Shown: positions 2,635-43,368 of the stretch, piece by piece
Layout of the letters: the number at the start of each line of letters is the position of its first letter
Numbering within the stretch: the first letter of the stretch is position 1
IMG/VR virus record: IMGVR_UViG_3300021387_000895
Location: 27,302-91,301 of that record
Direction: 5' to 3' (one strand)
Source of the DNA: a virus
Taxonomy: Duplodnaviria; Heunggongvirae; Uroviricota; Caudoviricetes
Length of the DNA: 64,000 nucleotides
Notes under the pieces: generated by a model
The model's database searches: none
The model's input: the letters and a program-made list of their open reading frames with translations, nothing else
What the model was told of the DNA's origin: nothing
Program-made: the position numbers and the translations under genes

Positions 2635-3600
2635 ATGAAGGACGTCTACGATTACAGTGGTAGCAAGCTGAATATCAGCGGTTTCGCAACACCGGAAATG
2701 TATGGGGCTGTAGGTGACGGAGTGGCTGATGATACAGTAGCAATACAGAAGGCAGTACAAGATAAGCGGCTTCTATTTGGAGCCGGGAGAAAATATAAAA
2801 TTACGACGGTTGTGGTGGTTGACGAAGGCACTGTAATAGATATGAACGGTTCGACGCTAATATGTACATATAAACAGTCGTTTTTTAACTTTCATAATGG
2901 CGATAGCTACGGAGGTTATAACGGGAACGGGAATATTACAATCCGAAATGGAACCATCATCGGCGGGGCAATCGGATTTATCCATGGTAAACACATAAGG
3001 CTTGAGAACCTGATATTCCAAAACACGTTAAAAGATCACTTCATTGAAATATGTGCCTGTCGGGATTTTCGGGTGAAGGACTGTATGTTTATCGGAATGC
3101 AAAACATGACTGGACGAGCGTTGGAATACATCAACATTGACACAAACGCCAGCTATGCTGCTTTCCCACACAACAGCAGTCACCAGAGCGACGCCACATT
3201 TTACGATATGGCCACCAATGCAGACATCACAATCCAGGATTGTTATTTTGCTCCGGGAGATGGCGATTATGCATATGGATACAACGCGATCGGTGTCCAT
3301 AGCCGCAATGTGGACAACACTTATGCCGATGGGGTTGCGCTCATCAACAACACGATCAAAGGCTTTACCGGCTGCGGGCTGAGGATCAACGCCATGCGCA
3401 AGGCGTACATCGCAGGCAACAACATCATGGCCGACGGGGATGGCATCCGCGTGGGTGACGTGGCGGACTGCGACGACGTGGTAATCGTGAACAACTATGT
3501 CGAATCCGAGAACGGCCAGAAGCTGGCGGTCACCGACGGACAGTGCCCGAACTTGACGGTGGCCGGGAATGCGGCAAAGGGCGAGCGGCAGGAGTTTTAG
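2635..3600 (+). CDS. right-handed beta-helix (pectin-lyase fold) tailspike / depolymerase
   Basis: Repeated NGTIIGG / IQNT / NNTIKG / AGNNI beta-helix rungs; GC-rich 3' end (3300-3600). Confidence 0.5.
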   Translation: MKDVYDYSGSKLNISGFATPEMYGAVGDGVADDTVAIQKAVQDKRLLFGAGRKYKITTVVVVDEGTVIDMNGSTLICTYKQSFFNFHNGDSYGGYNGNGNITIRNGTIIGGAIGFIHGKHIRLENLIFQNTLKDHFIEICACRDFRVKDCMFIGMQNMTGRALEYINIDTNASYAAFPHNSSHQSDATFYDMATNADITIQDCYFAPGDGDYAYGYNAIGVHSRNVDNTYADGVALINNTIKGFTGCGLRINAMRKAYIAGNNIMADGDGIRVGDVADCDDVVIVNNYVESENGQKLAVTDGQCPNLTVAGNAAKGERQEF

Positions 3601-3737: not shown

Positions 3738-3808
3738 AAGTTATGGCGTTTAACACCGTTAAGAACTAGTGTAAAATTCTAAGATGAATAGTTATAAGGA
3801 GATTAACG

Positions 3809-4831
3809 ATGAGTATAAAAATTAATTTTGATGAATATTTATATTCCACAGGCACTCACTACATCTCCAACTCTGGTAAGGATGAAAACGGCGCTTATCA
3901 TGGTGGTAAGGCTGGCGATCAGACTGGCCATGAGTGGGAATTGAAAGCTTGGTATAATCGGCCGTGGACTGTCGTTCTTAGGTATCCTGACTATGCTGTC
4001 GCCAGGAAGATTGCTAAACTTGCTATTGCCGCCGCTCTTAATAATAAGATTGGCTACGACCAGTATGAACGTACAAGCTATTGGACTCAGCTTAAGGCTG
4101 CGAAGTTTGATCCTTCCAAGATTACAACTCCTTGCGAAGACGATTGTACGGCCGGTGTCTCTGCTAATGTTCGAGCTGCTGGCTATATCTTCAATATTCA
4201 GGCTCTTAAAGACATTCCGATTTGTTCAAGTCGTGATATGAGGGCTAAGTTCACAAAGGCTGGTTTTAAGGCTCTGACAGCTTCGAAGTATTTGAGTGGC
4301 TATAATTATTTACTTCCCGGCGACATTCTCCTTTGCGAGAATCATCATGCAGCGACGAATATTACAATTGGCAGCAAAGTTGTCGAGCCTAAGATTGATG
4401 AGATCACAATCGATTTGAATGGCGAGATTCAGTCTGAAGTTGTACCAACTATCATGGGCTTTATTACCGTAAAAGGAAATTATAACGTCCGAACTGAAGC
4501 TAATAAGTCTGCTCGGTCAATCGGTGTTGCTAAGTCCGGCGAAAAGATCTCGTATCTCGGAGTAAATCAAAATGGTTGGAATGAGGTATGGTTTAGAGAA
4601 GAAGTAGGCTGGATTTCTTCTAAGGCTGGCGAAGTTAAAGAACTTAAAGGCTCACTTTTAGATGTTGTTCGTGGCAGCTGGAATGTGAGAGCCGAAGCAA
4701 ATGTTGAAAGTAAAAAGCTTGGTGTTGTCCATGCTGGAGATCAGTTGATGTCTACTGGTAAGCAAACCGATGGCTGGTACGAAGTTGAGTATAAAGACTC
4801 TACTGGCTGGGTATCCAAGAAGGCGTTTTAG
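3809..4831 (+). CDS. endolysin: cysteine-peptidase-like (NlpC/P60 or CHAP type) catalytic domain + two SH3b cell-wall-binding repeats
   Basis: Cys motif TPCEDDCTAGV and His motif LLCENHHAA; two C-terminal repeats GNYNVR..GW / GSWNVR..GW typical of SH3b. Confidence 0.55.
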   Translation: MSIKINFDEYLYSTGTHYISNSGKDENGAYHGGKAGDQTGHEWELKAWYNRPWTVVLRYPDYAVARKIAKLAIAAALNNKIGYDQYERTSYWTQLKAAKFDPSKITTPCEDDCTAGVSANVRAAGYIFNIQALKDIPICSSRDMRAKFTKAGFKALTASKYLSGYNYLLPGDILLCENHHAATNITIGSKVVEPKIDEITIDLNGEIQSEVVPTIMGFITVKGNYNVRTEANKSARSIGVAKSGEKISYLGVNQNGWNEVWFREEVGWISSKAGEVKELKGSLLDVVRGSWNVRAEANVESKKLGVVHAGDQLMSTGKQTDGWYEVEYKDSTGWVSKKAF

Positions 4832-5814: not shown

Positions 5815-5910
5815 CTGAATCCTGAAACCTGATAGCATTTGACTAATATGACGGGACCGTGGTATACTTGTACTGCGGTCTCGTCTTCTTATTCAAAATG
5901 GGAGGGTAGT

Positions 5911-6840
5911 ATGGAACAAGGAAGACTAGACAATTGTATTTTAGAATGGCTTGAGGATCATAAAAAGAATTCTGTAAAGGTCTTATCTTATGATAGGCTT
6001 TTGACGGCTTACAAGCTTATGCGATGTTATCCTGTTGCGAATTATCGAGTTTGCGACATGACATCAAAAGAGATTCAGAGATATTTGAATACTCTTGTTG
6101 ATGATGGGTACTCGATGTCTACGATCAAAAAGCAGTTTAATCTTATAACAGCTTATTGGAAGTGGGCAATGTCACAGGGGCTTGTTTCAAATCCATTATA
6201 TTTAGGAGTTAATTTACCGTTCGAGGAAGCCCTCCACAGCCCTTCAAAAGAGATTGAAGCTTACTCTCACAGTGAGCAAGAGAAGCTCTTAGAAAGGCTC
6301 ATAAGGCTTGAGAAAGACCAATACGGAGCTGCTGTACTAATGCTTGAAGCTGGACTTAGGGTAGGGGAGGCTTTGGCTCTAACTTGGGATGATGTCTTAT
6401 GGAACAGACGAGCTATAAGAATTCATCGTACTCTGATAAGGAAGTCTTCTGAACCTATTACTTACGTTCAAGACAGTCCGAAAAGTAAGAAGAGCAAACG
6501 AACGATCCCGCTTAGTGATACGGCTATGGAGGTTCTTTCGAAGTTAAAAGTTCGTAAAACCGGATGCCGATTCATCTTCTGCGAGGATCAACACAGCAAA
6601 ATGCCATACAGCTACTCGTCAGTCGAGTTTCATATAAGGCATTTGTGTAAAGATTTGGTTATTCCTTACAAAGGACTTCATGCTTTCAGGCATACGTTCG
6701 CGACGAACTGCTACGAGCGAGGTTGTGATGTTAAGATTTTGTCAAAACTGCTCGGGCACGCAAATGTTGCAATAACATACAACACATACATCCATTTATA
6801 CGGAGATGCTCTTGAAGAAATGCGAAAGGTGATTGGGTAA
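5911..6840 (+). CDS. int: tyrosine integrase / site-specific recombinase
   Basis: ATG at 5911 after GGGAGGG; C-terminal catalytic motifs LRVGEALAL..., HAFRHTFAT, LGHANVAITYNTYIH (R..HxxR..Y). Confidence 0.85.
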   Translation: MEQGRLDNCILEWLEDHKKNSVKVLSYDRLLTAYKLMRCYPVANYRVCDMTSKEIQRYLNTLVDDGYSMSTIKKQFNLITAYWKWAMSQGLVSNPLYLGVNLPFEEALHSPSKEIEAYSHSEQEKLLERLIRLEKDQYGAAVLMLEAGLRVGEALALTWDDVLWNRRAIRIHRTLIRKSSEPITYVQDSPKSKKSKRTIPLSDTAMEVLSKLKVRKTGCRFIFCEDQHSKMPYSYSSVEFHIRHLCKDLVIPYKGLHAFRHTFATNCYERGCDVKILSKLLGHANVAITYNTYIHLYGDALEEMRKVIG

Positions 6841-7042: not shown

Positions 7043-7120
7043 GCTAACGTAGTTCAAATGGTAGAACAGCCCTTTTCAGAGTCCAGGGTCGAGGTACTGG
7101 TTCGAGTCCAGTCGTTAGTA
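7043..7120 (+). tRNA. tRNA-like element with atypical (11-nt) anticodon loop
   Basis: Acceptor GCTAACG/CGTTAGT, D arm GTTC-AAATGGTA-GAAC, T arm ACTGG-TTCGAGT-CCAGT fold; anticodon stem GCCCT/AGGGT encloses 11 nt; 200 bp downstream of integrase. Confidence 0.4.
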
Positions 7121-8113: not shown

Positions 8114-8187
8114 GCTCGATTAGCTCAGTAGGTTAGAGCAGCGGCCTTATAAGCCGTGTGTCCTGAGTTCGAGTCTCAGATCGAGTA
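8114..8187 (+). tRNA. tRNA-Ile (anticodon TAT/UAU), AUA-decoding
   Basis: Full cloverleaf: acceptor GCTCGAT/ATCGAGT, D stem GCTC/GAGC, anticodon stem GCGGC/GCCGT loop CTTATAA, T arm CTGAG-TTCGAGT-CTCAG. Confidence 0.6.
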
Positions 8188-8233
8188 TTATATTCGCATT
8201 TCAAACAGCCTCCTTAGTAGAAAGGAGTGATCT

Positions 8234-8455
8234 ATGATGTCTAAACTCATCGGAATGCTTTTTAAGGTTAAAACTGATGAGAAAGCTTTTGAAGAACTAA
8301 GAGATAGGACTAAAGACATGCCAAAGGAGTACCAAGATAGAGCTGAGTTTACTTTAGCTTGCTATGGTTTATTGAAATTCGGTATGGCGGCACTTATAAG
8401 TTCGGATTTGAAAAAGAAAAATGTTGAGGATTCCATGGAAAGTGCGGCATTATAG
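8234..8455 (+). CDS. hypothetical small protein
   Basis: Early-cassette motif upstream; terminator hairpin downstream. Confidence 0.45.
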   Translation: MMSKLIGMLFKVKTDEKAFEELRDRTKDMPKEYQDRAEFTLACYGLLKFGMAALISSDLKKKNVEDSMESAAL

Positions 8456-8576
8456 AAAATCTAATAAGCTGAGATAACACTCGGCTTATTTTTTTTCGCG
8501 ATTAAAACACATTTCTTAATAGATATAGGAGTCTTGATTTATTCAAGGCTCTATAGTTTTTAGGAGGTGTGATCCG

Positions 8577-8822
8577 ATGAATAATGTTAAGATTTCAACT
8601 AGCTGTCTTGAGGGATATTTGACTAAGGCTTGTCCGCATTGCGTGTTTTGGAGTGATGGAGACAACGAATTGCTCAACGAGGTCTATCCGATGGCATATG
8701 GAAGAGAATTAGGAGCTTCAGTAGGATGTTGCATTCCGGCTCCAATTGGCGACTGTCCTTTCTTCAGAGTATATGTCGAAGGTAAGAATGTACTCGCTCA
8801 ACTGGTTCAATCCCAGGAGTGA
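8577..8822 (+). CDS. hypothetical Cys-rich small protein
   Basis: GGAGG RBS; C..CPHC..CC motifs. Confidence 0.4.
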   Translation: MNNVKISTSCLEGYLTKACPHCVFWSDGDNELLNEVYPMAYGRELGASVGCCIPAPIGDCPFFRVYVEGKNVLAQLVQSQE

Positions 8823-8971
8823 GCAAAATCAAAATGGGATTAAATAGTGCTGTTTTCATTTGATTACCTCCTTTCTTGATATACGATATATAGAGGTTCC
8901 CATGATGCCGACCACATTGCACTAGCCTCTATACATATTAATAGTGATTGGATATCAGGAGGTTATTAACA

Positions 8972-9205
8972 ATGAATAATGAAGAATTAAAAGGCGATTC
9001 GAAGTGTTTTGTCATTTTTTATCGCTATGGATTAAGTTGCGGTGTAACAAAAGTCACAAGAAAATTAGATGATGCTATACGATTTATCTCTGAAATAACT
9101 GGAATTTCGCGTTTCGAAATAAATCAGAATTATGAAATGGGAAAGACTGAGGTGTTTGATAGATATAATACATTTTATTATATAGAAGAGCACCCATTAG
9201 ATTAA
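8972..9205 (+). CDS. hypothetical small protein
   Basis: AGGAGG RBS before ATG 8972. Confidence 0.4.
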   Translation: MNNEELKGDSKCFVIFYRYGLSCGVTKVTRKLDDAIRFISEITGISRFEINQNYEMGKTEVFDRYNTFYYIEEHPLD

Positions 9206-9272
9206 TCATAATTAAAGATTATTCGCGATTAAAACAAGCTGTATAATGATAAATTTAAAGGAGGGTTTTCTC

Positions 9273-9431
9273 ATGAAGAAATTCTTTGTTGAAGCTCGAA
9301 CCGATAATGGTATGAGGATTACGATGACTGTGCCTGCCGAAACCGCTATGGATGCGGAATTGGAAGCCGGTCGCAAGCTCATTTCCACCGGGTTCAAGAA
9401 CTCGAAGATTTCCATCGTGGAAGAGTGCTAA
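9273..9431 (+). CDS. hypothetical small protein (52 aa)
   Basis: AAAGGAGGG RBS; followed by strong terminator hairpin + T10. Confidence 0.4.
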   Translation: MKKFFVEARTDNGMRITMTVPAETAMDAELEAGRKLISTGFKNSKISIVEEC

Positions 9432-9480
9432 GGTTTATCGACCGATAATAAGGGATGCATAACGTGTCCCTTATTTTTTT
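9432..9480 (+). terminator. rho-independent terminator
   Basis: AAGGGATGCATAACGTGTCCCTTATTTTTTTTTT hairpin + T-run. Confidence 0.6.
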
Positions 9481-9483
9481 TTT

Positions 9484-9570
9484 GCCGGTATGGTGGAATG
9501 GCAGACACCTCAGACTTAAAATCTGATGTCCTTATTGGGCGTGCGGGTTCAAGTCCCGCTACCGGTACCA
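9484..9570 (+). tRNA. tRNA-Leu (anticodon TAA/UAA), class II with long variable arm, encoded CCA
   Basis: Acceptor GCCGGTA/TACCGGT + A + CCA; anticodon stem TCAGA/TCTGA loop CTTAAAA; T arm GCGGG-TTCAAGT-CCCGC. Confidence 0.75.
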
Positions 9571-9687
9571 GCTGTGTACACGGCTACAGACAAAACCTTA
9601 TGGGGCCGTTTGGTTTTTGCGAAGGTTTTTAGGGGCGGCCCTTTCGCATTTGAAACACACTCCTTAATAGAAAGGAGATGTATTTGA

Positions 9688-26925: not shown

Positions 26926-27162
26926 ATGAATGCATTAATGAATCTAAGTCTTACTCAATTCACAGCGTGGATTATAATGATGGTTCTACTTATTATACCA
27001 TTAATCGCTTTTTTATTCACATGGATGACAAATATTTGGTTTACAAAAAAGACTGAGTATACTGTAGATATTTTAAAGAGAATCGTAAACGTTATTGATG
27101 CTGCTAAAAGAGAATGGTTTGATAAAAAGAAGGAGGAGAACAAGGATGAGCAGGAACAATAA
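26926..27162 (+). CDS. hypothetical small membrane protein
   Basis: One TM helix. Confidence 0.4.
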   Translation: MNALMNLSLTQFTAWIIMMVLLIIPLIAFLFTWMTNIWFTKKTEYTVDILKRIVNVIDAAKREWFDKKKEENKDEQEQ

Positions 27163-27367
27163 TCTTGTTTGCGATGTATGCGGACGAGAAATCAGGAGAA
27201 ACTATGAACATTATATTTTTCCTTTGAGGTTCTATCTTGTAGTGCCGTCGCAATACGTTTATATAAGGGAAAAAGACGGAAAGAAACCTCGTGACATGTG
27301 CTTAAAATGTTTTGAAGATTTCAAGAAATTTGTAAAGGAAAAGAGGGAGGAAGCACAAAATGAATAA
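27146..27367 (+). CDS. hypothetical zinc-ribbon protein (CDVCG...CLKCF)
   Basis: AAGGAGG RBS. Confidence 0.4.
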   Translation: MSRNNNLVCDVCGREIRRNYEHYIFPLRFYLVVPSQYVYIREKDGKKPRDMCLKCFEDFKKFVKEKREEAQNE

Positions 27368-28166
27368 CGAACAAACAAATCGACCTTCGGATTTTGTAGA
27401 ATGGCTTGGAAAAGATAATGTCATTGGTCAATCTATAATGGAGCGAAAGTATAGACGGCGTGGAGAAAGTTTTGATGAGTTCTTAAATCGAGTAAGCGGT
27501 GGAGACGAAGATCTTAAGGAACTCATTCTCGAAAAGAAATTCCTGCTTGGCGGTAGGACTATGGCGAATCGAGGACTCGATACTTCGGCGACATATTTTA
27601 ACTGCTATTCGATTGGGTTCGTTCCGGATGACTTTGGAGAGATCATGGATGTGGCTAAGAAGATCGGACTTACCTTCAAAGCTCAGGGAGGTCAGGGTCT
27701 TTCTTTAAGCAAGCTGAGACCTAAGGGAACACCCATTGGCAAGGATTATGCTTCCGATGGCATTATTCCTTTTATGAAACTTTATAACGAAGTAACTGCC
27801 GCTACAAGTCAGGGTGGGGCTCGTAAGGGAGCTTTAATAATGTCTCTAGATGCTCATCATAAGGAAGCTATGGACTTTATTAAGATAAAGTCAGAGCCAG
27901 GACTTATTGAAAAGGCTAATCTTTCGCTTGAGATTGATAATTCTTTTATGTCGGCTGCATGCAAAGAAGAGCCTCTATTCGAATTCCATGAATACTCAGG
28001 TCATAAAGTAGATTACAAGATCAATCCTAAAGATATTCTGCATGAAGTAGCAAAGGTGGCCTGGGATTGGGGTGAACCAGGAGTACTTTTTGTGGATAAA
28101 CTTCGCAACTATAATCTAATGCAATACGACGATGAGTATCAGATCGAAACAACGAATCCGTGCGGT
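27360..28166 (+). CDS. ribonucleotide reductase, exon 1 (class II NrdJ-like), ends NPCG
   Basis: N-terminal ...FDEFLNRVSGG... and NPCG active-site motif; reading frame hits a stop 2 codons later unless spliced. Confidence 0.7.
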
Positions 28167-28792
28167 CTCTGAATGATAAGTTGGCCCCACGTAAAACATC
28201 CCGAAAAATCGGTGAAAGCTAAACCAAAGAGCTTTGGCATGCTAATACCGAGTTTCTACTACATCACAGAGAAATGTAACGCATAGATAGTGAGCGCTAA
28301 GAGAGCAATAAACTATCCACGAGTTCGGGACTTTTGACACGTAAAAAAAGGAGAATCATGATAATTTATAAAGCAACGAATTTGATAAATGGGAAAGTAT
28401 ATATTGGTGCAACATCATTGAAACTTAATGCAAGAATCAAATACCATATAAAAGATGCTTATAGACCTGATAGACCTAAGGGACGTTTTCAAGAAGCGAT
28501 AATTAAATACGGAATCGATTCATTTGATTTCGAGCAAATTGAATGATGTTACAAATCATTATAAACCATTAACAGACTTTATAAATAGAAAATACGGAAT
28601 CTCTGATTTGAGAAGTTTATTCTTATGTCTAGATGTTAAAACCAAAAAAGAATTTGCTTTATCTTTAATTAAAATCGTGTCAGAAGAAAATATATGCTGA
28701 GCCGGTCTGAATCGACAGACGTATCGTTTTATAAACGTATGAGGGAAACCTCCGGAAATATAGGATAAAAAGCCTATATGATAACAACACTG
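28167..28792 (+). mobile_element. group I intron interrupting the RNR gene
   Basis: 5' exon ends in T, intron ends in G; splicing restores NPCG|EQPLPKHGACCLSSLNL; contains a homing-endonuclease ORF. Confidence 0.6.
28334..28546 (+). pseudogene. GIY-YIG homing endonuclease, truncated/decayed (70 aa)
   Basis: IYKATNLINGKVYIGAT GIY-YIG core; ORF stops right after the catalytic domain, no DNA-binding domain follows. Confidence 0.55.
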
Positions 28793-30253
28793 GAACAACC
28801 TTTACCGAAGCATGGTGCGTGCTGCTTATCTTCTCTTAATTTGTCAGAATTTGTTCGTTTCCCATACACAGAGAAAGCATTCTTCGCAAGTGGAGAGTTC
28901 GTTTTAGCTGTAGAGAAAGCGGTTAAGGCGCTTGATAAGTTAATTGATGAGAATTATAATCGGCATCCTTTAAAAGAACAACAAGAAATGAGTTTTAATT
29001 ATAGGAACATTGGCCTTGGTGTATTTGGTTATGGAACAATGCTCATGAAGCTTGGAATGCGATACGGTTCTGAGGAAGCTCTTAAGTTTACTGATGATAT
29101 TTTCGGTTTACTTTTTAGGGCAGCCGTTCTTGCCAGCAACGATCTCGCAAAAGAGTTCGGACCCTATCCTAAATACAAAGAGTGCGTCCTAGACAGTGAT
29201 ATTATTAAAGCTCATTTCAGACAAGACGAAATTGACGAACTGAAGCAATGCGGTCTTCGAAATTGCTCATTAATTTCGATTGCTCCAACCGGAACACTTG
29301 CGACATTGCTTGGCGAAACTAGTGGATGTGAACCAGAATTTGCTATGAAGTATACTCGTAGAACTGTTGGTATGACTGATGGTGATAACACTTACTATGA
29401 AGTCGATTGCAAGGCTGCAAAAGAGTATAAGGAAATTAATCATACCGATATTCTTCCTGATTATTTCGTCGCATCTGATGATATTCCTTGGATGGATCGA
29501 ATTCGCACTCAAGCGGTGATGCAAAAACATGTCGATACAGGTATTAGTTCTACAGTCAATCTGCCATATGAAACTAAAGTCGAAGAGATAGAAGACCTTT
29601 ATATTGAGGCGTGGAAACATGGTCTCAAGGGTATTACTGTTTTCCGAAAAGGATGCAAGCGAATGCCCATTCTTTCGATTGATAAGAAAGAAGGCGAGAT
29701 CAAAAAGATTGGTAAGATGAGAAAACTTACTACTGGTTGTGGATCTCTGCATCTATGTGCTATGTTCAATTCGGTTACGGGAGAGCTCATGGAGATATTC
29801 TTGAACAAGGGATCTTCCGGCGGATGCAATAACTTCATGATCGGTCTTAGTAGGCAGATCTCCCTTAATTGCCAGAACGGAGCAAAGATTGATGATATTC
29901 TTGATCAGCTTGCTTCATCTGGCGTGTGCCCATCTTATGCCGTAAGAACTGCAACAAAGCATGACACTTCTCCTGGTTCATCTTGTCCTGTTGCAGTAGG
30001 AAAGGCACTTAAGGAGATGTGGGAGGAGATGCAAAGTGAGCTTCGAACCGTGGCAAAAGATACTGCTAAAAACAATGATTCTCAAACCAGAACTAGTAAA
30101 ACAAAACACTATCAGGATTCCAAGAAAGATGGGGAAATCTCAAATGGAGTTGAAGCATATGATGGAAAGAAGTGTCCAGTTTGCGGAAAAGCAATCGACC
30201 ACATCGGAGGATGTGACCAATGTACCAACTGCGGATGGAGTAAATGCGAGTGA
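28793..30253 (+). CDS. ribonucleotide reductase, exon 2 (C-terminal zinc-ribbon CPVCG..CDQCTNCG)
   Basis: EQPLPKHGACCLSSLNL active-site loop and further RNR barrel motifs. Confidence 0.7.
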   Translation, partial: EQPLPKHGACCLSSLNLSEFVRFPYTEKAFFASGEFVLAVEKAVKALDKLIDENYNRHPLKEQQEMSFNYRNIGLGVFGYGTMLMKLGMRYGSEEALKFTDDIFGLLFRAAVLASNDLAKEFGPYPKYKECVLDSDIIKAHFRQDEIDELKQCGLRNCSLISIAPTGTLATLLGETSGCEPEFAMKYTRRTVGMTDGDNTYYEVDCKAAKEYKEINHTDILPDYFVASDDIPWMDRIRTQAVMQKHVDTGISSTVNLPYETKVEEIEDLYIEAWKHGLKGITVFRKGCKRMPILSIDKKEGEIKKIGKMRKLTTGCGSLHLCAMFNSVTGELMEIFLNKGSSGGCNNFMIGLSRQISLNCQNGAKIDDILDQLASSGVCPSYAVRTATKHDTSPGSSCPVAVGKALKEMWEEMQSELRTVAKDTAKNNDSQTRTSKTKHYQDSKKDGEISNGVEAYDGKKCPVCGKAIDHIGGCDQCTNCGWSKCE

Positions 30254-30376
30254 TATTTACAGATTAAATACTATTTCTAATAAGTTTATACCTAAAGACG
30301 GAATAATTAGAATGCCTTATATTCTAACAAGAAAAGAATTCGAAGCAATATGCGAACGTAATAAGGAGAATAAGTA

Positions 30377-30580
30377 ATGAAAAGAGTAGGTATTTGCACT
30401 GGAAAAGTATATTCTGACGATGACTATAACGATCACAATATTAAAGAATGTGCCATCTGTGTCACTCCTTCTTTGCCGGAAGAGGATGGGATTCGAAATG
30501 CAAAGGAAAGAGCTCAGCTTCGAAGAACTATGATGGCTTGCGGAGTTGAATGCAAGGAATGTGAAGAGAGGCGAAAGTAA
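30377..30580 (+). CDS. hypothetical Cys-rich small protein
   Basis: AAGGAG RBS, ATGA coupling. Confidence 0.35.
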   Translation: MKRVGICTGKVYSDDDYNDHNIKECAICVTPSLPEEDGIRNAKERAQLRRTMMACGVECKECEERRK

Positions 30581-30748
30581 TATCTCGCGATCAAAACAAG
30601 CCGTATAGTGATAAGGAGTTGTGAAAAGCAGCCTCTTATATTTTTCTCTACTGATATGACGGACTTTATGGAGGTGAAATTATGTCTCGTTGGATTGGTG
30701 ACTAATTGGATTAACGTTGGTGATATTTGGTAATAAGGAGAGCAAGGA

Positions 30749-36793: not shown

Positions 36794-36895
36794 TCGCGGT
36801 CAAAACAAGTTTGTTGGTGATAAAGGGCTCTAAATACAGGGCTCTTTATTTTTCTTTATAGGGAATGGACCAAATAAAAATCAGGAGGCAGGATT

Positions 36896-37939
36896 ATGAA
36901 ATTCCCAATCAAGATCAAAATTCCACCTAAACTCACAAACTTCTACATCAAAGCAATGACAAAAGTGAAGCATAAGTCACCAGAGATTTGTCTTGGAATT
37001 GGAATCGTAACCGGGGTTGGTGCTGTCATTCTTGTCGGTATAAAGACCTGGAAGAATAAGGATTTGCTCATGGATGATGCAGCAGAAATTGTAAGACTTA
37101 CTGACTACGATCCGGAAAATGATAACGATCCTAATAATCCTCTTTTAACTGAAGAAGAACGAATCATTGATCTTAAGAAAGCTAAGAAAGAAATGCGGAT
37201 GGATATCGTAAAGACGTATTGGATTCCAGTTGTATTGACTATAAGCTCTATCAGCTTTACAATTGGTGGATATCGAATTCTTCGCAAAGAACTTGCCACG
37301 ATGACTGCTGCATACGCTCTGTTGCTCGATTCTTATAAGCGTTATATTCAGAATGATATTAATCGCAACGGCATCGAGAGTTATCAGGACAACATGCATG
37401 GCATCAAGATGGTTGACACAATTGATGAGGAAACCGGAGAAGTCGTACAAAAAGCCATTGTGCAAAGGGAACTCAATTGTTCACGATATGCTCGCTGGTT
37501 TGATGAGGGTAATTATGACAGTGCTATTTGTAAGTGGATTTGGCGTAATCCTAATTGGCATCACAACAAAATTGAGTGCGCTCGTCGTGTCAAGATGATT
37601 CAAAGTTCTCTTAATGACACCCTTCATATGCGTGGATGGATGAAGCTCAACGAAGCTTACATGGCTTTCGGACTTCCTTGCAGTGAGGAAGGTGAACATG
37701 TTGGTTGGGTCCTTGGCTCTGGCCATGATGACTTTATCGATGTTGCCGTGTTCCCCGATTTCCAGAACGGTCGTCATCAGCTTCCTATTAATAAGAAGTT
37801 CCTTGATGAGCGAGATCCACAGAACAATTGCTTGCTCGACTTCAACGTCGATGGCTGCATCGATTACATCTTCAAAGATATTCTCGAATACGACAATCGG
37901 AGCTATATCAGTTATGACAAGCGTAAGGCTCTACAGTGA
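36896..37939 (+). CDS. membrane protein, paralog family member D
   Basis: Two TM helices; LNEAYMAFGL...VGW. Confidence 0.45.
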   Translation: MKFPIKIKIPPKLTNFYIKAMTKVKHKSPEICLGIGIVTGVGAVILVGIKTWKNKDLLMDDAAEIVRLTDYDPENDNDPNNPLLTEEERIIDLKKAKKEMRMDIVKTYWIPVVLTISSISFTIGGYRILRKELATMTAAYALLLDSYKRYIQNDINRNGIESYQDNMHGIKMVDTIDEETGEVVQKAIVQRELNCSRYARWFDEGNYDSAICKWIWRNPNWHHNKIECARRVKMIQSSLNDTLHMRGWMKLNEAYMAFGLPCSEEGEHVGWVLGSGHDDFIDVAVFPDFQNGRHQLPINKKFLDERDPQNNCLLDFNVDGCIDYIFKDILEYDNRSYISYDKRKALQ

Positions 37940-42036: not shown

Positions 42037-42280
42037 CATTGAGAAGAAGCATGGGGTCATAGGCTATTATACAAGAATGGCTAAAGATGTTTTGGCGGAT
42101 TCTACTATTCTCTCAGATCATTATGTAAGAATAGGAAAAACAGAAGAAGAATATGGACGTGTCGATAATGCTGAGTGGTTATGTGAGATTCATATCAACT
42201 CTATTGAGCAAGCTCTTGATTATGCCGCGATTTTTCAAAAGATTGCTAATAGAATGAGAGAAGAAAAAGGAGAACAATAA
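42023..42280 (+). CDS. hypothetical protein
   Basis: Overlapping start. Confidence 0.4.
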   Translation: MLKIDIEKKHGVIGYYTRMAKDVLADSTILSDHYVRIGKTEEEYGRVDNAEWLCEIHINSIEQALDYAAIFQKIANRMREEKGEQ

Positions 42281-43368
42281 TGGATAAGCAAGTCAAAGTA
42301 GTTATCGGAGCAAATTATGGGGACGAGTGTAAAGGTCTCGTCTCCTATTGCTTAGCTAAAGAGGCCAACGCACAAGGAAGAAAGATATTAACGGTTCTTT
42401 TTAATGGCGGCGCACAAAGAGCTCATACCGCTGATGGCAAGATATTCCACTGTACTGGAACCGGAGCTGCCGTTGGATCTGATACTTACTATGATCAGAA
42501 ATTCATGGTAGATCCGGTAGCTCTTTGGCTTGATAAGGCTAAGGTATACATCAATCCTTATTGCAGAGTTGTCCTTCCGTGTGATATAACGAATAATCAG
42601 CAAAGAGAACTTCGTTTAAGAAATAGCAGCTCTGGACATGGAACCTGTGGAATGGGGATATTTGAGGCATGTAAAAGGAGTAAGATCGAAAAGTATTGCG
42701 TATATGCTAAAGAGCTATTTATGGGATGGCGGCAACTCTATGATAAGCTCATAGAAATTGAAAAGGAGTATGGGTATCCTAGAGATCTTGTATACAACAA
42801 TGATAATTTCATGAGAGCTGTAAAGTATGTAACGGACAAGTGCTCTATTTGTGATCTCGATGAACTGAAATACAAATATGATACGATTATATTTGAAGGT
42901 GGTCAGGGTCTAATGCTCGACCAGGATAATACTGGTGACTTTCCTTATCTTACTCCATCTTCAACCGGTGTTCAAAACATTACTCAACGATTATTGGATC
43001 TCGAAGTTAATCCAGAATTATATTATGTGTCCAGATCATATTTAACAAGGCATGGTAAAGGTCCTTTGCCGAGGGAATGCGAAAAGAGTGATATTAATCC
43101 AGAAATCGTTGACGAAACAAATAAACCTAATCCATGGCAAGAAGAGATACGGTATGGATTTTTGGATAACGAAGCCATGCTTAAAAGGGTGTGGAAAAAT
43201 GCATGCCCGATAGGTGGCGCTAAGATAAATCTTGTCTACACTCATCTTAACTACACTAACGATAAACTTGCAGTGGGAAGAAACAGCTTTGAAACGATCA
43301 AGAAACCTAGCTTTGTGAATCATGTTTATGGTTCGGATAGTAAAGATGCTATGGGAGTGATATTGTAG
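42280..43368 (+). CDS. adenylosuccinate synthetase homolog, PurZ-like (candidate 2-aminoadenine/dZ-monophosphate synthetase)
   Basis: VVIGANYGDECKG (cf. PurA GDEGKGK), GGAQRAHT, IIFEGGQGLMLDQDNTGDFPYLTPSST, YLTRHGKGPLP align to PurA motifs; 362 aa, i.e. truncated relative to cellular PurA as phage PurZ is. Confidence 0.6.
   Translation: MDKQVKVVIGANYGDECKGLVSYCLAKEANAQGRKILTVLFNGGAQRAHTADGKIFHCTGTGAAVGSDTYYDQKFMVDPVALWLDKAKVYINPYCRVVLPCDITNNQQRELRLRNSSSGHGTCGMGIFEACKRSKIEKYCVYAKELFMGWRQLYDKLIEIEKEYGYPRDLVYNNDNFMRAVKYVTDKCSICDLDELKYKYDTIIFEGGQGLMLDQDNTGDFPYLTPSSTGVQNITQRLLDLEVNPELYYVSRSYLTRHGKGPLPRECEKSDINPEIVDETNKPNPWQEEIRYGFLDNEAMLKRVWKNACPIGGAKINLVYTHLNYTNDKLAVGRNSFETIKKPSFVNHVYGSDSKDAMGVIL

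Follow-up and report, generated by a model that had tools for sequence, protein, structure and literature searches.

The ribonucleotide reductase (RNR) gene nrdJ of the phage studied here is in all likelihood (a probability of about 0.92) interrupted by a group I intron that is self-splicing and carries a deletion-wrecked homing-endonuclease gene. The gene lies in a stretch of 64,000 nucleotides (nt) from a Caudoviricetes virus (IMG/VR record IMGVR_UViG_3300021387_000895, positions 27,302 to 91,301), hereafter the window, and coordinates are those of this whole stretch unless another locus is named. Herein, L-numbers denote fetched loci and P-numbers protein homologues. We start from the host gene and the ribozyme, move on to what is left of the endonuclease, and end by setting the intron beside known systems.

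The split nrdJ gene

The gene and its insert are made up of the following parts:

27360..28166, plus strand: nrdJ exon 1, 269 codons (807 nt) in frame, ending ...IETTNPCG
28167..28792, plus strand: predicted group I intron, IA-like, 626 nt, with P7.1 present, no P2, and an open reading frame (ORF) in loop L8
28793..30253, plus strand: nrdJ exon 2, 486 codons and a stop, beginning EQPLPKHGACC

Exon 1 closes with AAT CCG TGC GGT (NPCG, with GGT at 28164-28166), its protein reading ...YQIETTNPCG, and then runs on into the codons CTC TGA, i.e., a stop 4 nt downstream of the exon end. Exon 2 opens with GAA CAA CCT, translated EQPLPKHGACCLSSLNL, and stays open through 30253. On the Pfam model PF02867 (RNR barrel), exon 1 matches positions 8-213 (E 4e-32) and exon 2 positions 219-522 (E 1e-55); because these ranges abut, the exons are adjoining halves of one domain. 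Exon 2 also carries the TSCPD domain (PF12637 in Pfam), followed by a Cys-rich C-terminus. The joined protein of 755 amino acids (aa) scores 418.3 bits on the NCBIfam model TIGR02504 (NrdJ_Z, adenosylcobalamin-dependent RNR; cut-off 399.95), and the predicted product is a class II (adenosylcobalamin) RNR, NrdJ, with an intact Asn-x-Cys-x-Glu loop.

More than 100 unbroken homologues of ~756 aa (60-80% identity) cover 98-99% of the joined protein without a gap at the junction, and the exons share 75-80% identity with intact homologues. Since uninterrupted homologues cross the junction in this way, the interruption of the gene is not a product of chance. TTNPCGEQPL is continuous and gapless in the nearest homologues, namely P0001 and the syntenic 89-kb relative L126, whose intron-less allele reads ...ACGAATCCATGTGGGGAACAACCTTTGCC... 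at the insertion site. The insertion point falls exactly between the catalytic Cys-Gly and Glu codons (NPCG|E), the Cys and Glu being two residues apart. The predicted spliced junction is ...AAUCCGUGCGGU|GAACAACCUUUACC, with AATCCGTGCGGTGAACAACCTTTACC as the junction 26-mer. On metagenome contigs identical to the window, the genes called are three in number, with lengths of 270, 62, and 491 aa.

A preliminary description, made from the letters of the window alone, had already proposed an RNR gene split at NPCG|E by 626 nt and had pointed to related phages as a place to look for intron-less alleles. The coordinates, the two PF02867 halves, the TIGR02504 match, and the gapless homologues bear out the split, and in the unbroken TTNPCGEQPL of P0001 and L126 the halves are not separate genes.

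Two further observations concern the reductase itself. Among cultured phages, its closest relatives are the RNRs of Bacteroides and Clostridioides phages, which share only 36-40% identity with it. A close NrdJ homologue of 1127 aa, P0014, has an intein with a LAGLIDADG/Hom_end domain at TSQGG|C...SN|SRKGAL, which makes up a second conserved nrdJ site, distinct from the intron site NPCG|E.

Predicted ribozyme core and splice sites

In a blastn comparison of the insert with annotated phages, its last ~100 nt match Caldibacillus phage CBP1 (in the tape-measure gene), Clostridium phage CB452P1, and Bacillus phages AR9 and PBS1 at 77-90% identity. The AR9 match lies inside gyrA, which is annotated there as a three-piece join (intron-containing). 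The window has a single copy of the family-defining 3' motif AGGATAAAAAGCCTNNNNGATAACAA, where 0.01 would be expected by chance, and the motif is present on at least 120 IMG/VR contigs; most family members are ORF-less and 230-300 nt long, and a few have ORFs. Searched as a whole with megablast, the locus had no match in the phage collection, and nhmmer found no second family intron elsewhere in the window.

The structure was drawn first against the ORF-less CBP1 intron and then against alignment A1, which holds the window and 26 non-redundant relatives sharing its P3-P6 module (27 sequences). A MAFFT alignment of all 90 non-redundant family members was set aside, as it ran to 569 very gappy columns with differing 5' halves, and the set was cut to the 27. 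The elements in the window are:

28159..28191, plus strand: P1, exon CGUGCGGU (28159-66) with the internal guide sequence GCCCCACG (28184-91)
28199..28330, plus strand: 5' half of the core, from the P3 5' strand to the P3 3' strand
28199-205 with 28324-330, plus strand: P3, all 7 pairs covarying
28209-13 with 28247-51, plus strand: P4, covariation in A1
28217-19 with 28241-43, plus strand: P5, covariation in A1
28224-29 with 28232-37, plus strand: P5a
28252-57 with 28270-75, plus strand: P6, covariation in A1
28279-85 with 28693-98, plus strand: P7, C28280 bulged beside an invariant G-C pair, 2 of 6 pairs covarying
28286-90 with 28313-17, plus strand: P7.1, all 5 pairs covarying
28331..28686, plus strand: P8, CUUUUGACACG (28331-41) with CGUGUCAGAAG (28676-86), 11 perfect base pairs
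28693..28792, plus strand: 3' half of the core, from the P7 3' strand to the terminal G
28702-03 plus 28741-44 with 28749-55, plus strand: P9, with a GAAA loop
28705-20 and 28725-37, plus strand: two hairpins inserted in P9 of the window copy
28758-64 with 28773-79, plus strand: distal hairpin, conserved in the intron family
up to G28792, plus strand: 3' tail, GAUAACAACACUG and then the terminal G at 28792

Each of the listed core pairs in the 5' half is Watson-Crick or G.U in the window. P8 encloses the 334-nt loop L8, which holds the endonuclease remnants, and its first 6 base pairs covary across the intron family.

The case for a ribozyme is carried by covariation. In A1, 97.4% of 1296 cells (48 pairs in 10 helices over 27 sequences) pair, as against 75.8% in shuffled controls, none of 500 shuffles matching the observed value, and 32-41% in controls whose 3' partners were slid by 1-3 columns. 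Changes on both sides are seen in 35 of the 48 pairs, the strands of the P3/P7 pseudoknot included, and the covariation score is 0.633 versus 0.07-0.13 in the slid controls. RNAalifold, run without a supplied structure and unable to draw the P7 pseudoknot, recovers P3, P4, P5, P6, P7.1, P8, the tip of P9, and the distal hairpin, with compensatory changes in 38 of 47 pairs. At the columns that are invariant over the 27 sequences, window included, the window has the family base in 63 of 63. The G-C pair in P7 (columns 126:224; G28281:C28697) is invariant in 27 of 27 and adjoins the bulged column 125; by analogy with G264-C311 of Tetrahymena, we take it to be the G-binding site.

With respect to the subgroup, P7.1 was found in the window, and a distinct P7.2 and P2 were not. 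Subgroup IA2 (the T4 td/Twort type) is marked by additional helices P7.1/P7.2, placed between P7 and the P3 3' strand, and by longer peripheral helices at P9. P9 with its GAAA loop, the distal hairpin, and GAUAACA...G seem to resemble the 3' architecture of the Twort and td introns, and we would tentatively class the intron as IA-like, with a layout like that of Twort and T4 td.

The insert begins with CTCTGAATG and ends with ...CACTG, and its splice sites can be placed by P1. There, 7 of 8 positions pair, with a U28166.G28184 wobble at the 5' splice site, and the in-frame stop UGA (28170-72) falls inside the P1 loop. Among nine distinct introns inserted at the same site (see below), the guide and the Pro codon's wobble base (exon position -7) combine as U-A, C-G, A-U, and G-C, and at exon position -2 (Gly GGU or Ala GCU) as G-C and C-G. 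Because the guide sequence tracks the exon across the same-site introns, both splice sites are fixed independently of the protein argument. All same-site relatives have the exon-terminal U and the intron-terminal G, and the window intron ends with G28792. The preliminary description had noted these two terminal letters and had called the insert a group I intron; family covariation, seen for P1, P3-P9, the P3/P7 pseudoknot, and the terminal U.G and G, supports that assignment.

Critically speaking, several observations count against this interpretation. In P1, exon position -4 forms a C x C mismatch, and P10 is weak in the window copy, amounting to AAC/GUU alone with a one-base offset. The A1 members were picked for their likeness to the window, whose row also served to project the structure, and this favors the structure somewhat. 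Lastly, the covariance-model search that the preliminary description had looked to for a subgroup did not come out as hoped: Rfam cmscan gave no group I match (RF00028), either in 27000-30600 at E<=1 or over the whole window at gathering score. The same search was also silent on the intron loci of AR9 gyrA, CBP1, and CB452P1, which served as a control; since RF00028 misses these introns too, the negative is uninformative. Both the slid-partner controls and RNAalifold, run independently, speak against circularity and an artefact in the pairing signal.

The miss by RF00028 seems to be systematic, so that split genes stay in phage catalogues, and gene callers consequently report the pieces of broken genes (RNR, tape-measure, and others) as ORFs of their own. 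Gut and Firmicutes phages commonly carry introns of this clade, and a covariance model of the family would repair many gene calls.

Splicing itself would run as follows. The last 8 exon bases would pair with the guide sequence to form P1, with the U.G wobble at the splice site, and the P3-P8 and P4-P6 domains would fold round the P3/P7 pseudoknot. A P7-bound guanosine would then attack after U28166, whereupon the free 3'-OH of the exon would attack after the terminal G28792, joining the exons for a NrdJ of 755 aa. These steps follow standard group I chemistry. Because the RNR depends on splicing, the ribozyme core would still be under selection.

Endonuclease remnants, recurrent insertion, and phage context

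Loop L8 holds two ORFs, the second of which runs on into the core:

28358..28546, plus strand: ORF1, N-terminal stub of a GIY-YIG homing endonuclease, 62 aa and a stop (Pfam PF01541)
28524..28700, plus strand: ORF2, frame-shifted C-terminal endonuclease remnant, 58 aa, in a different frame from ORF1

ORF1 is 70 aa long from a TTG (28334) or 62 aa from an ATG (28358) that is preceded by a GGAG Shine-Dalgarno sequence at 28350-53. It matches PF01541 at E 1e-4 and 22.9 bits (cut-off 22.6) over model positions 3-40 of 78, and a profile of its homologues matches it at E 2e-24, in keeping with the GIY-YIG core that had been read in the insert beforehand. It keeps the GIY, YIG, Arg, and His motifs, its last residues are FDFEQIE, and in an alignment with nine full-length homologues (A2) it ends just short of near-invariant Glu and Asn columns. 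These columns correspond to Glu75 and Asn90 of I-TevI, as the A2 profile matches the I-TevI catalytic domain (PDB 1MK0, 1LN0) at E 2e-21, and the end of ORF1 falls at about I-TevI residue 63. The profile was needed here, a single full-length endonuclease homologue giving no match in the PDB.

What was lost can be gauged from an intact orthologue. The same-site intron of L136 (1114 nt; L106 is of the same type) encodes in the same loop an intact 271-aa GIY-YIG protein that covers PF01541 positions 3-75 of 78 and has a CxxC...CxxxC finger. Residues 1-61 of this protein share 45-52% identity with ORF1. ORF2, whose UGA stop sits within the P7 3' strand, shares 40% identity with the intact L136/L106 endonuclease over a stretch of 35 aa (residues 218-252 of the latter; pairwise E 1e-6; E 1.4e-4 by phmmer among all window ORFs). 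Because ORF1 and ORF2 match residues 1-61 and 218-252, respectively, about 156 internal codons have been lost together with a change of frame, and the 488-nt difference in length between the L136 and window introns fits a loss of ~156 codons. The deletion is confined to L8, and the enclosing P8 stem pairs perfectly.

The window endonuclease is, from its sequence, decayed, with neither the catalytic Glu and Asn nor an in-frame C-terminal DNA-binding domain. The preliminary description had seen a degenerating enzyme that simply stopped short of its DNA-binding domain; the decay stands, with ORF1 ending before Glu75 and Asn90, whereas the DNA-binding part is not simply absent but survives as a 58-aa C-terminal remnant out of frame, and the damage is an internal deletion of ~156 codons with a frame change rather than a simple truncation. 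Searches of the window with hmmsearch and phmmer brought up no other endonuclease of the GIY-YIG, HNH, or NUMOD type. In this scenario the intron would first have spread by homing through an I-TevI-like GIY-YIG endonuclease encoded in L8, and would have become an immobile passenger once the endonuclease gene lost ~156 codons and its frame. We find it improbable that the ORF1 stub is retained as a small functional protein, which might block the endonucleases of related co-infecting phages or aid intron folding, or that the intron is mobilized in trans by the endonuclease of a co-infecting relative. The 62-aa ORF1 does keep a strong GGAG Shine-Dalgarno sequence and an open frame; for trans-mobilization, T4 MobE, which mobilizes the defunct I-TevIII intron in trans, may serve as a model.

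The insertion site is a recurrent target. A scan for the 3' motif followed by GGARSARCC retrieved 15 IMG/VR viral contigs, at 11 of which the 5' boundary could be placed, giving 9 distinct introns. Each placed locus has a family intron at NPC(G/A)|E(E/Q)PL of an RNR gene. In Clostridioides phage pCD1602_4 (L140, i.e., CP069348.1 88015-90881), the RNR is split at NPCA|EEPL by a family intron that is unannotated in GenBank and carries a 139-aa HNH ORF, and the gene of the related phage LIBA6276 is uninterrupted. In all, a predicted family intron interrupts at least 10 further distinct phage RNR genes at this boundary, and the high conservation of the site in its host gene, pointed out in the preliminary description, goes together with repeated targeting.

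The cargo varies among the same-site loci compared (L127, L131/L132, L136/L106, L101, L129, L133-L135, L137, and L138). It may be an HNH_3 ORF (L127, pCD1602_4), a 317-aa ORF with a weak NUMOD3 match (L131), an intact GIY-YIG ORF (L136/L106), or nothing, the ORF-less same-site introns measuring 253-302 nt. The three unrelated ORF types occupy different loops. A single RNR codon boundary would display the homing cycle, from empty alleles and ORF-less introns to introns with GIY-YIG, HNH, or other ORFs, and the window phage would stand in that cycle at a point where the endonuclease has just decayed and the ribozyme is intact.

One contig, L110, was dropped as an RNR-site intron because its flanks are not RNR. 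At ~3425-3470 it has the family 3' motif followed by ...CTCTTTTGGTTGAACAACCATTG, and the same strand upstream has no recognizable 5' core or host gene; this copy may be a truncated or rearranged intron.

As for the phage itself, it is uncultured and its genome measures ~94 kb. Three tRNA genes (7043-7120, 8114-8187, and 9484-9567) lie near a tyrosine integrase and an ELLD+SH3 endolysin (window 5836-6837; 3788-4828), and the phage is probably temperate, with a gram-positive gut bacterium as its host. A 371-aa ORF at 42253-43365 (plus strand) matches Pfam Adenylsucc_synt at E 7e-21 over model positions 1-281 of 416. In the PDB it matches cellular PurA alone, and weakly (best E 1e-9), with no PurZ structure among the matches; so short a PurA homologue in a phage prompts one to ask whether there might be a PurZ-type 2-aminoadenine (Z-base) pathway. 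An ORF at 36878-37936 (plus strand) matches DUF6353, and the intron-less L126 has two adjacent DUF6353 genes (8154-9651) ~2 kb downstream of nrdJ.

Alternative explanations and known systems

The insert could also stay in the RNA, the halves being translated separately and assembling into an active RNR. Gene callers do give two RNR genes of 270 and 491 aa, an ATG at 28778 would yield MITTL+EQPL..., and functional split RNRs are known, namely NrdA-a/NrdA-b with mobE in Aeh1 and a natural NrdJa/NrdJb (PMC3045599, PMC4520616). That ATG, however, lies within the 3' strand of the conserved intron hairpin and is absent from most family members, and the sole AGGA, 12 nt upstream of it, is base-paired, leaving no usable Shine-Dalgarno sequence. 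Aeh1-style assembly tails are missing too, the exon 1 product gaining a single Leu; the split would part the catalytic Cys from the Glu two residues on, and an intact, covarying ribozyme with an exon-matched guide would be left unexplained. We give separate translation hardly any credence.

It is very unlikely, too, that splicing has been lost, for instance through the endonuclease deletion, and that nrdJ is a decaying pseudogene. The large deletion in the endonuclease is evident, P10 is weak, and the phage could in principle use the host RNR. Yet the two exons are open throughout and conserved (75-80% identity), all core pairs are intact, and the 11 perfect base pairs of P8 close round the deleted region; the deletion lies wholly within L8, and the family base is present at 63 of 63 invariant columns. 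The probability of an intein or a group II intron in place of a group I intron is close to nil. RNR genes are frequent intein hosts, and P0014 is a homologue that has one, but at a different site (SQGG|C), and the insert has an in-frame stop 4 nt from its start and is closed in all three frames; the intein reading was dropped as already refuted by the sequence. A group II intron would leave its mark in a reverse transcriptase or a domain V/VI match in Rfam, neither of which was found, and an ORF-bearing group II intron would need more than 626 nt.

A spliced group I intron in nrdJ, the reading we prefer, fits well into what is known of phage introns. Among phage genes, it is RNR that group I introns interrupt most often (PMC3653736), with T4 nrdB, Twort nrdE, SPbeta nrdE/nrdF, and Brochothrix A9 as named examples (PMC3653736 and reviews), and the nrdE/nrdF introns of the B. 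cereus group have been surveyed (PMC2504315). Insertion beside catalytic residues, early stops in P1/P2, endonuclease ORFs overlapping the core, and defunct endonucleases have all been described (PMC2504315, PMC3984707, PMC2790892). The stop 4 nt into the window intron and the endonuclease ORF entering its core agree with these published phage group I introns (PMC2504315, PMC3984707). The kind of element is well known, and the finding opens no new mechanistic question. Our literature search on phage introns turned up no description of the nrdJ NPCG/A|E insertion site, and this site is a detail, not a new principle.

Phage and prophage RNR introns, mostly of group IA, are likewise inserted in frame beside critical conserved residues and have an early in-intron stop. 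They come with or without a homing endonuclease, which in some cases is degenerate, such as T4 I-TevIII (for all these features, PMC3653736, PMC2504315, PMC2790892, PMC3984707). Their known hosts, on the other hand, are class I or class III genes, whereas the window host is the class II gene nrdJ.

In its ribozyme, the window intron is directly homologous to the introns of the CBP1 tape-measure gene, AR9/PBS1 gyrA, and the tape-measure genes of B. cereus prophages (related IA1/IA2 introns in prophage tape-measure genes are described in PMC2504315), with which it has its helix set in common and from which it differs by compensatory changes. These relatives sit in other host genes and hence have other guide sequences; those of the CBP1/AR9 type are mostly ORF-less with a simple P9, whereas the window copy has two extra P9 hairpins and the ORF remnant in L8.

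With I-TevI of the T4 td intron, ORF1 has the GIY, YIG, Arg27-like, and His motifs in common, and the intact L136 orthologue (271 aa) shares its two-domain layout, Cys4 zinc finger included. The window copy, with Glu75, Asn90, the linker, and the zinc finger gone and its C-terminal remnant out of frame, would not be a functional member of that group. Finally, Aeh1 nrdA-a/mobE/nrdA-b offers a parallel in which a mobile endonuclease element likewise splits the RNR large subunit near the Cys/Glu loop (PMC3045599). There, a ribozyme is absent and the fragments have assembly tails and translation signals of their own, whereas the window has a full ribozyme in place of such tails and signals.

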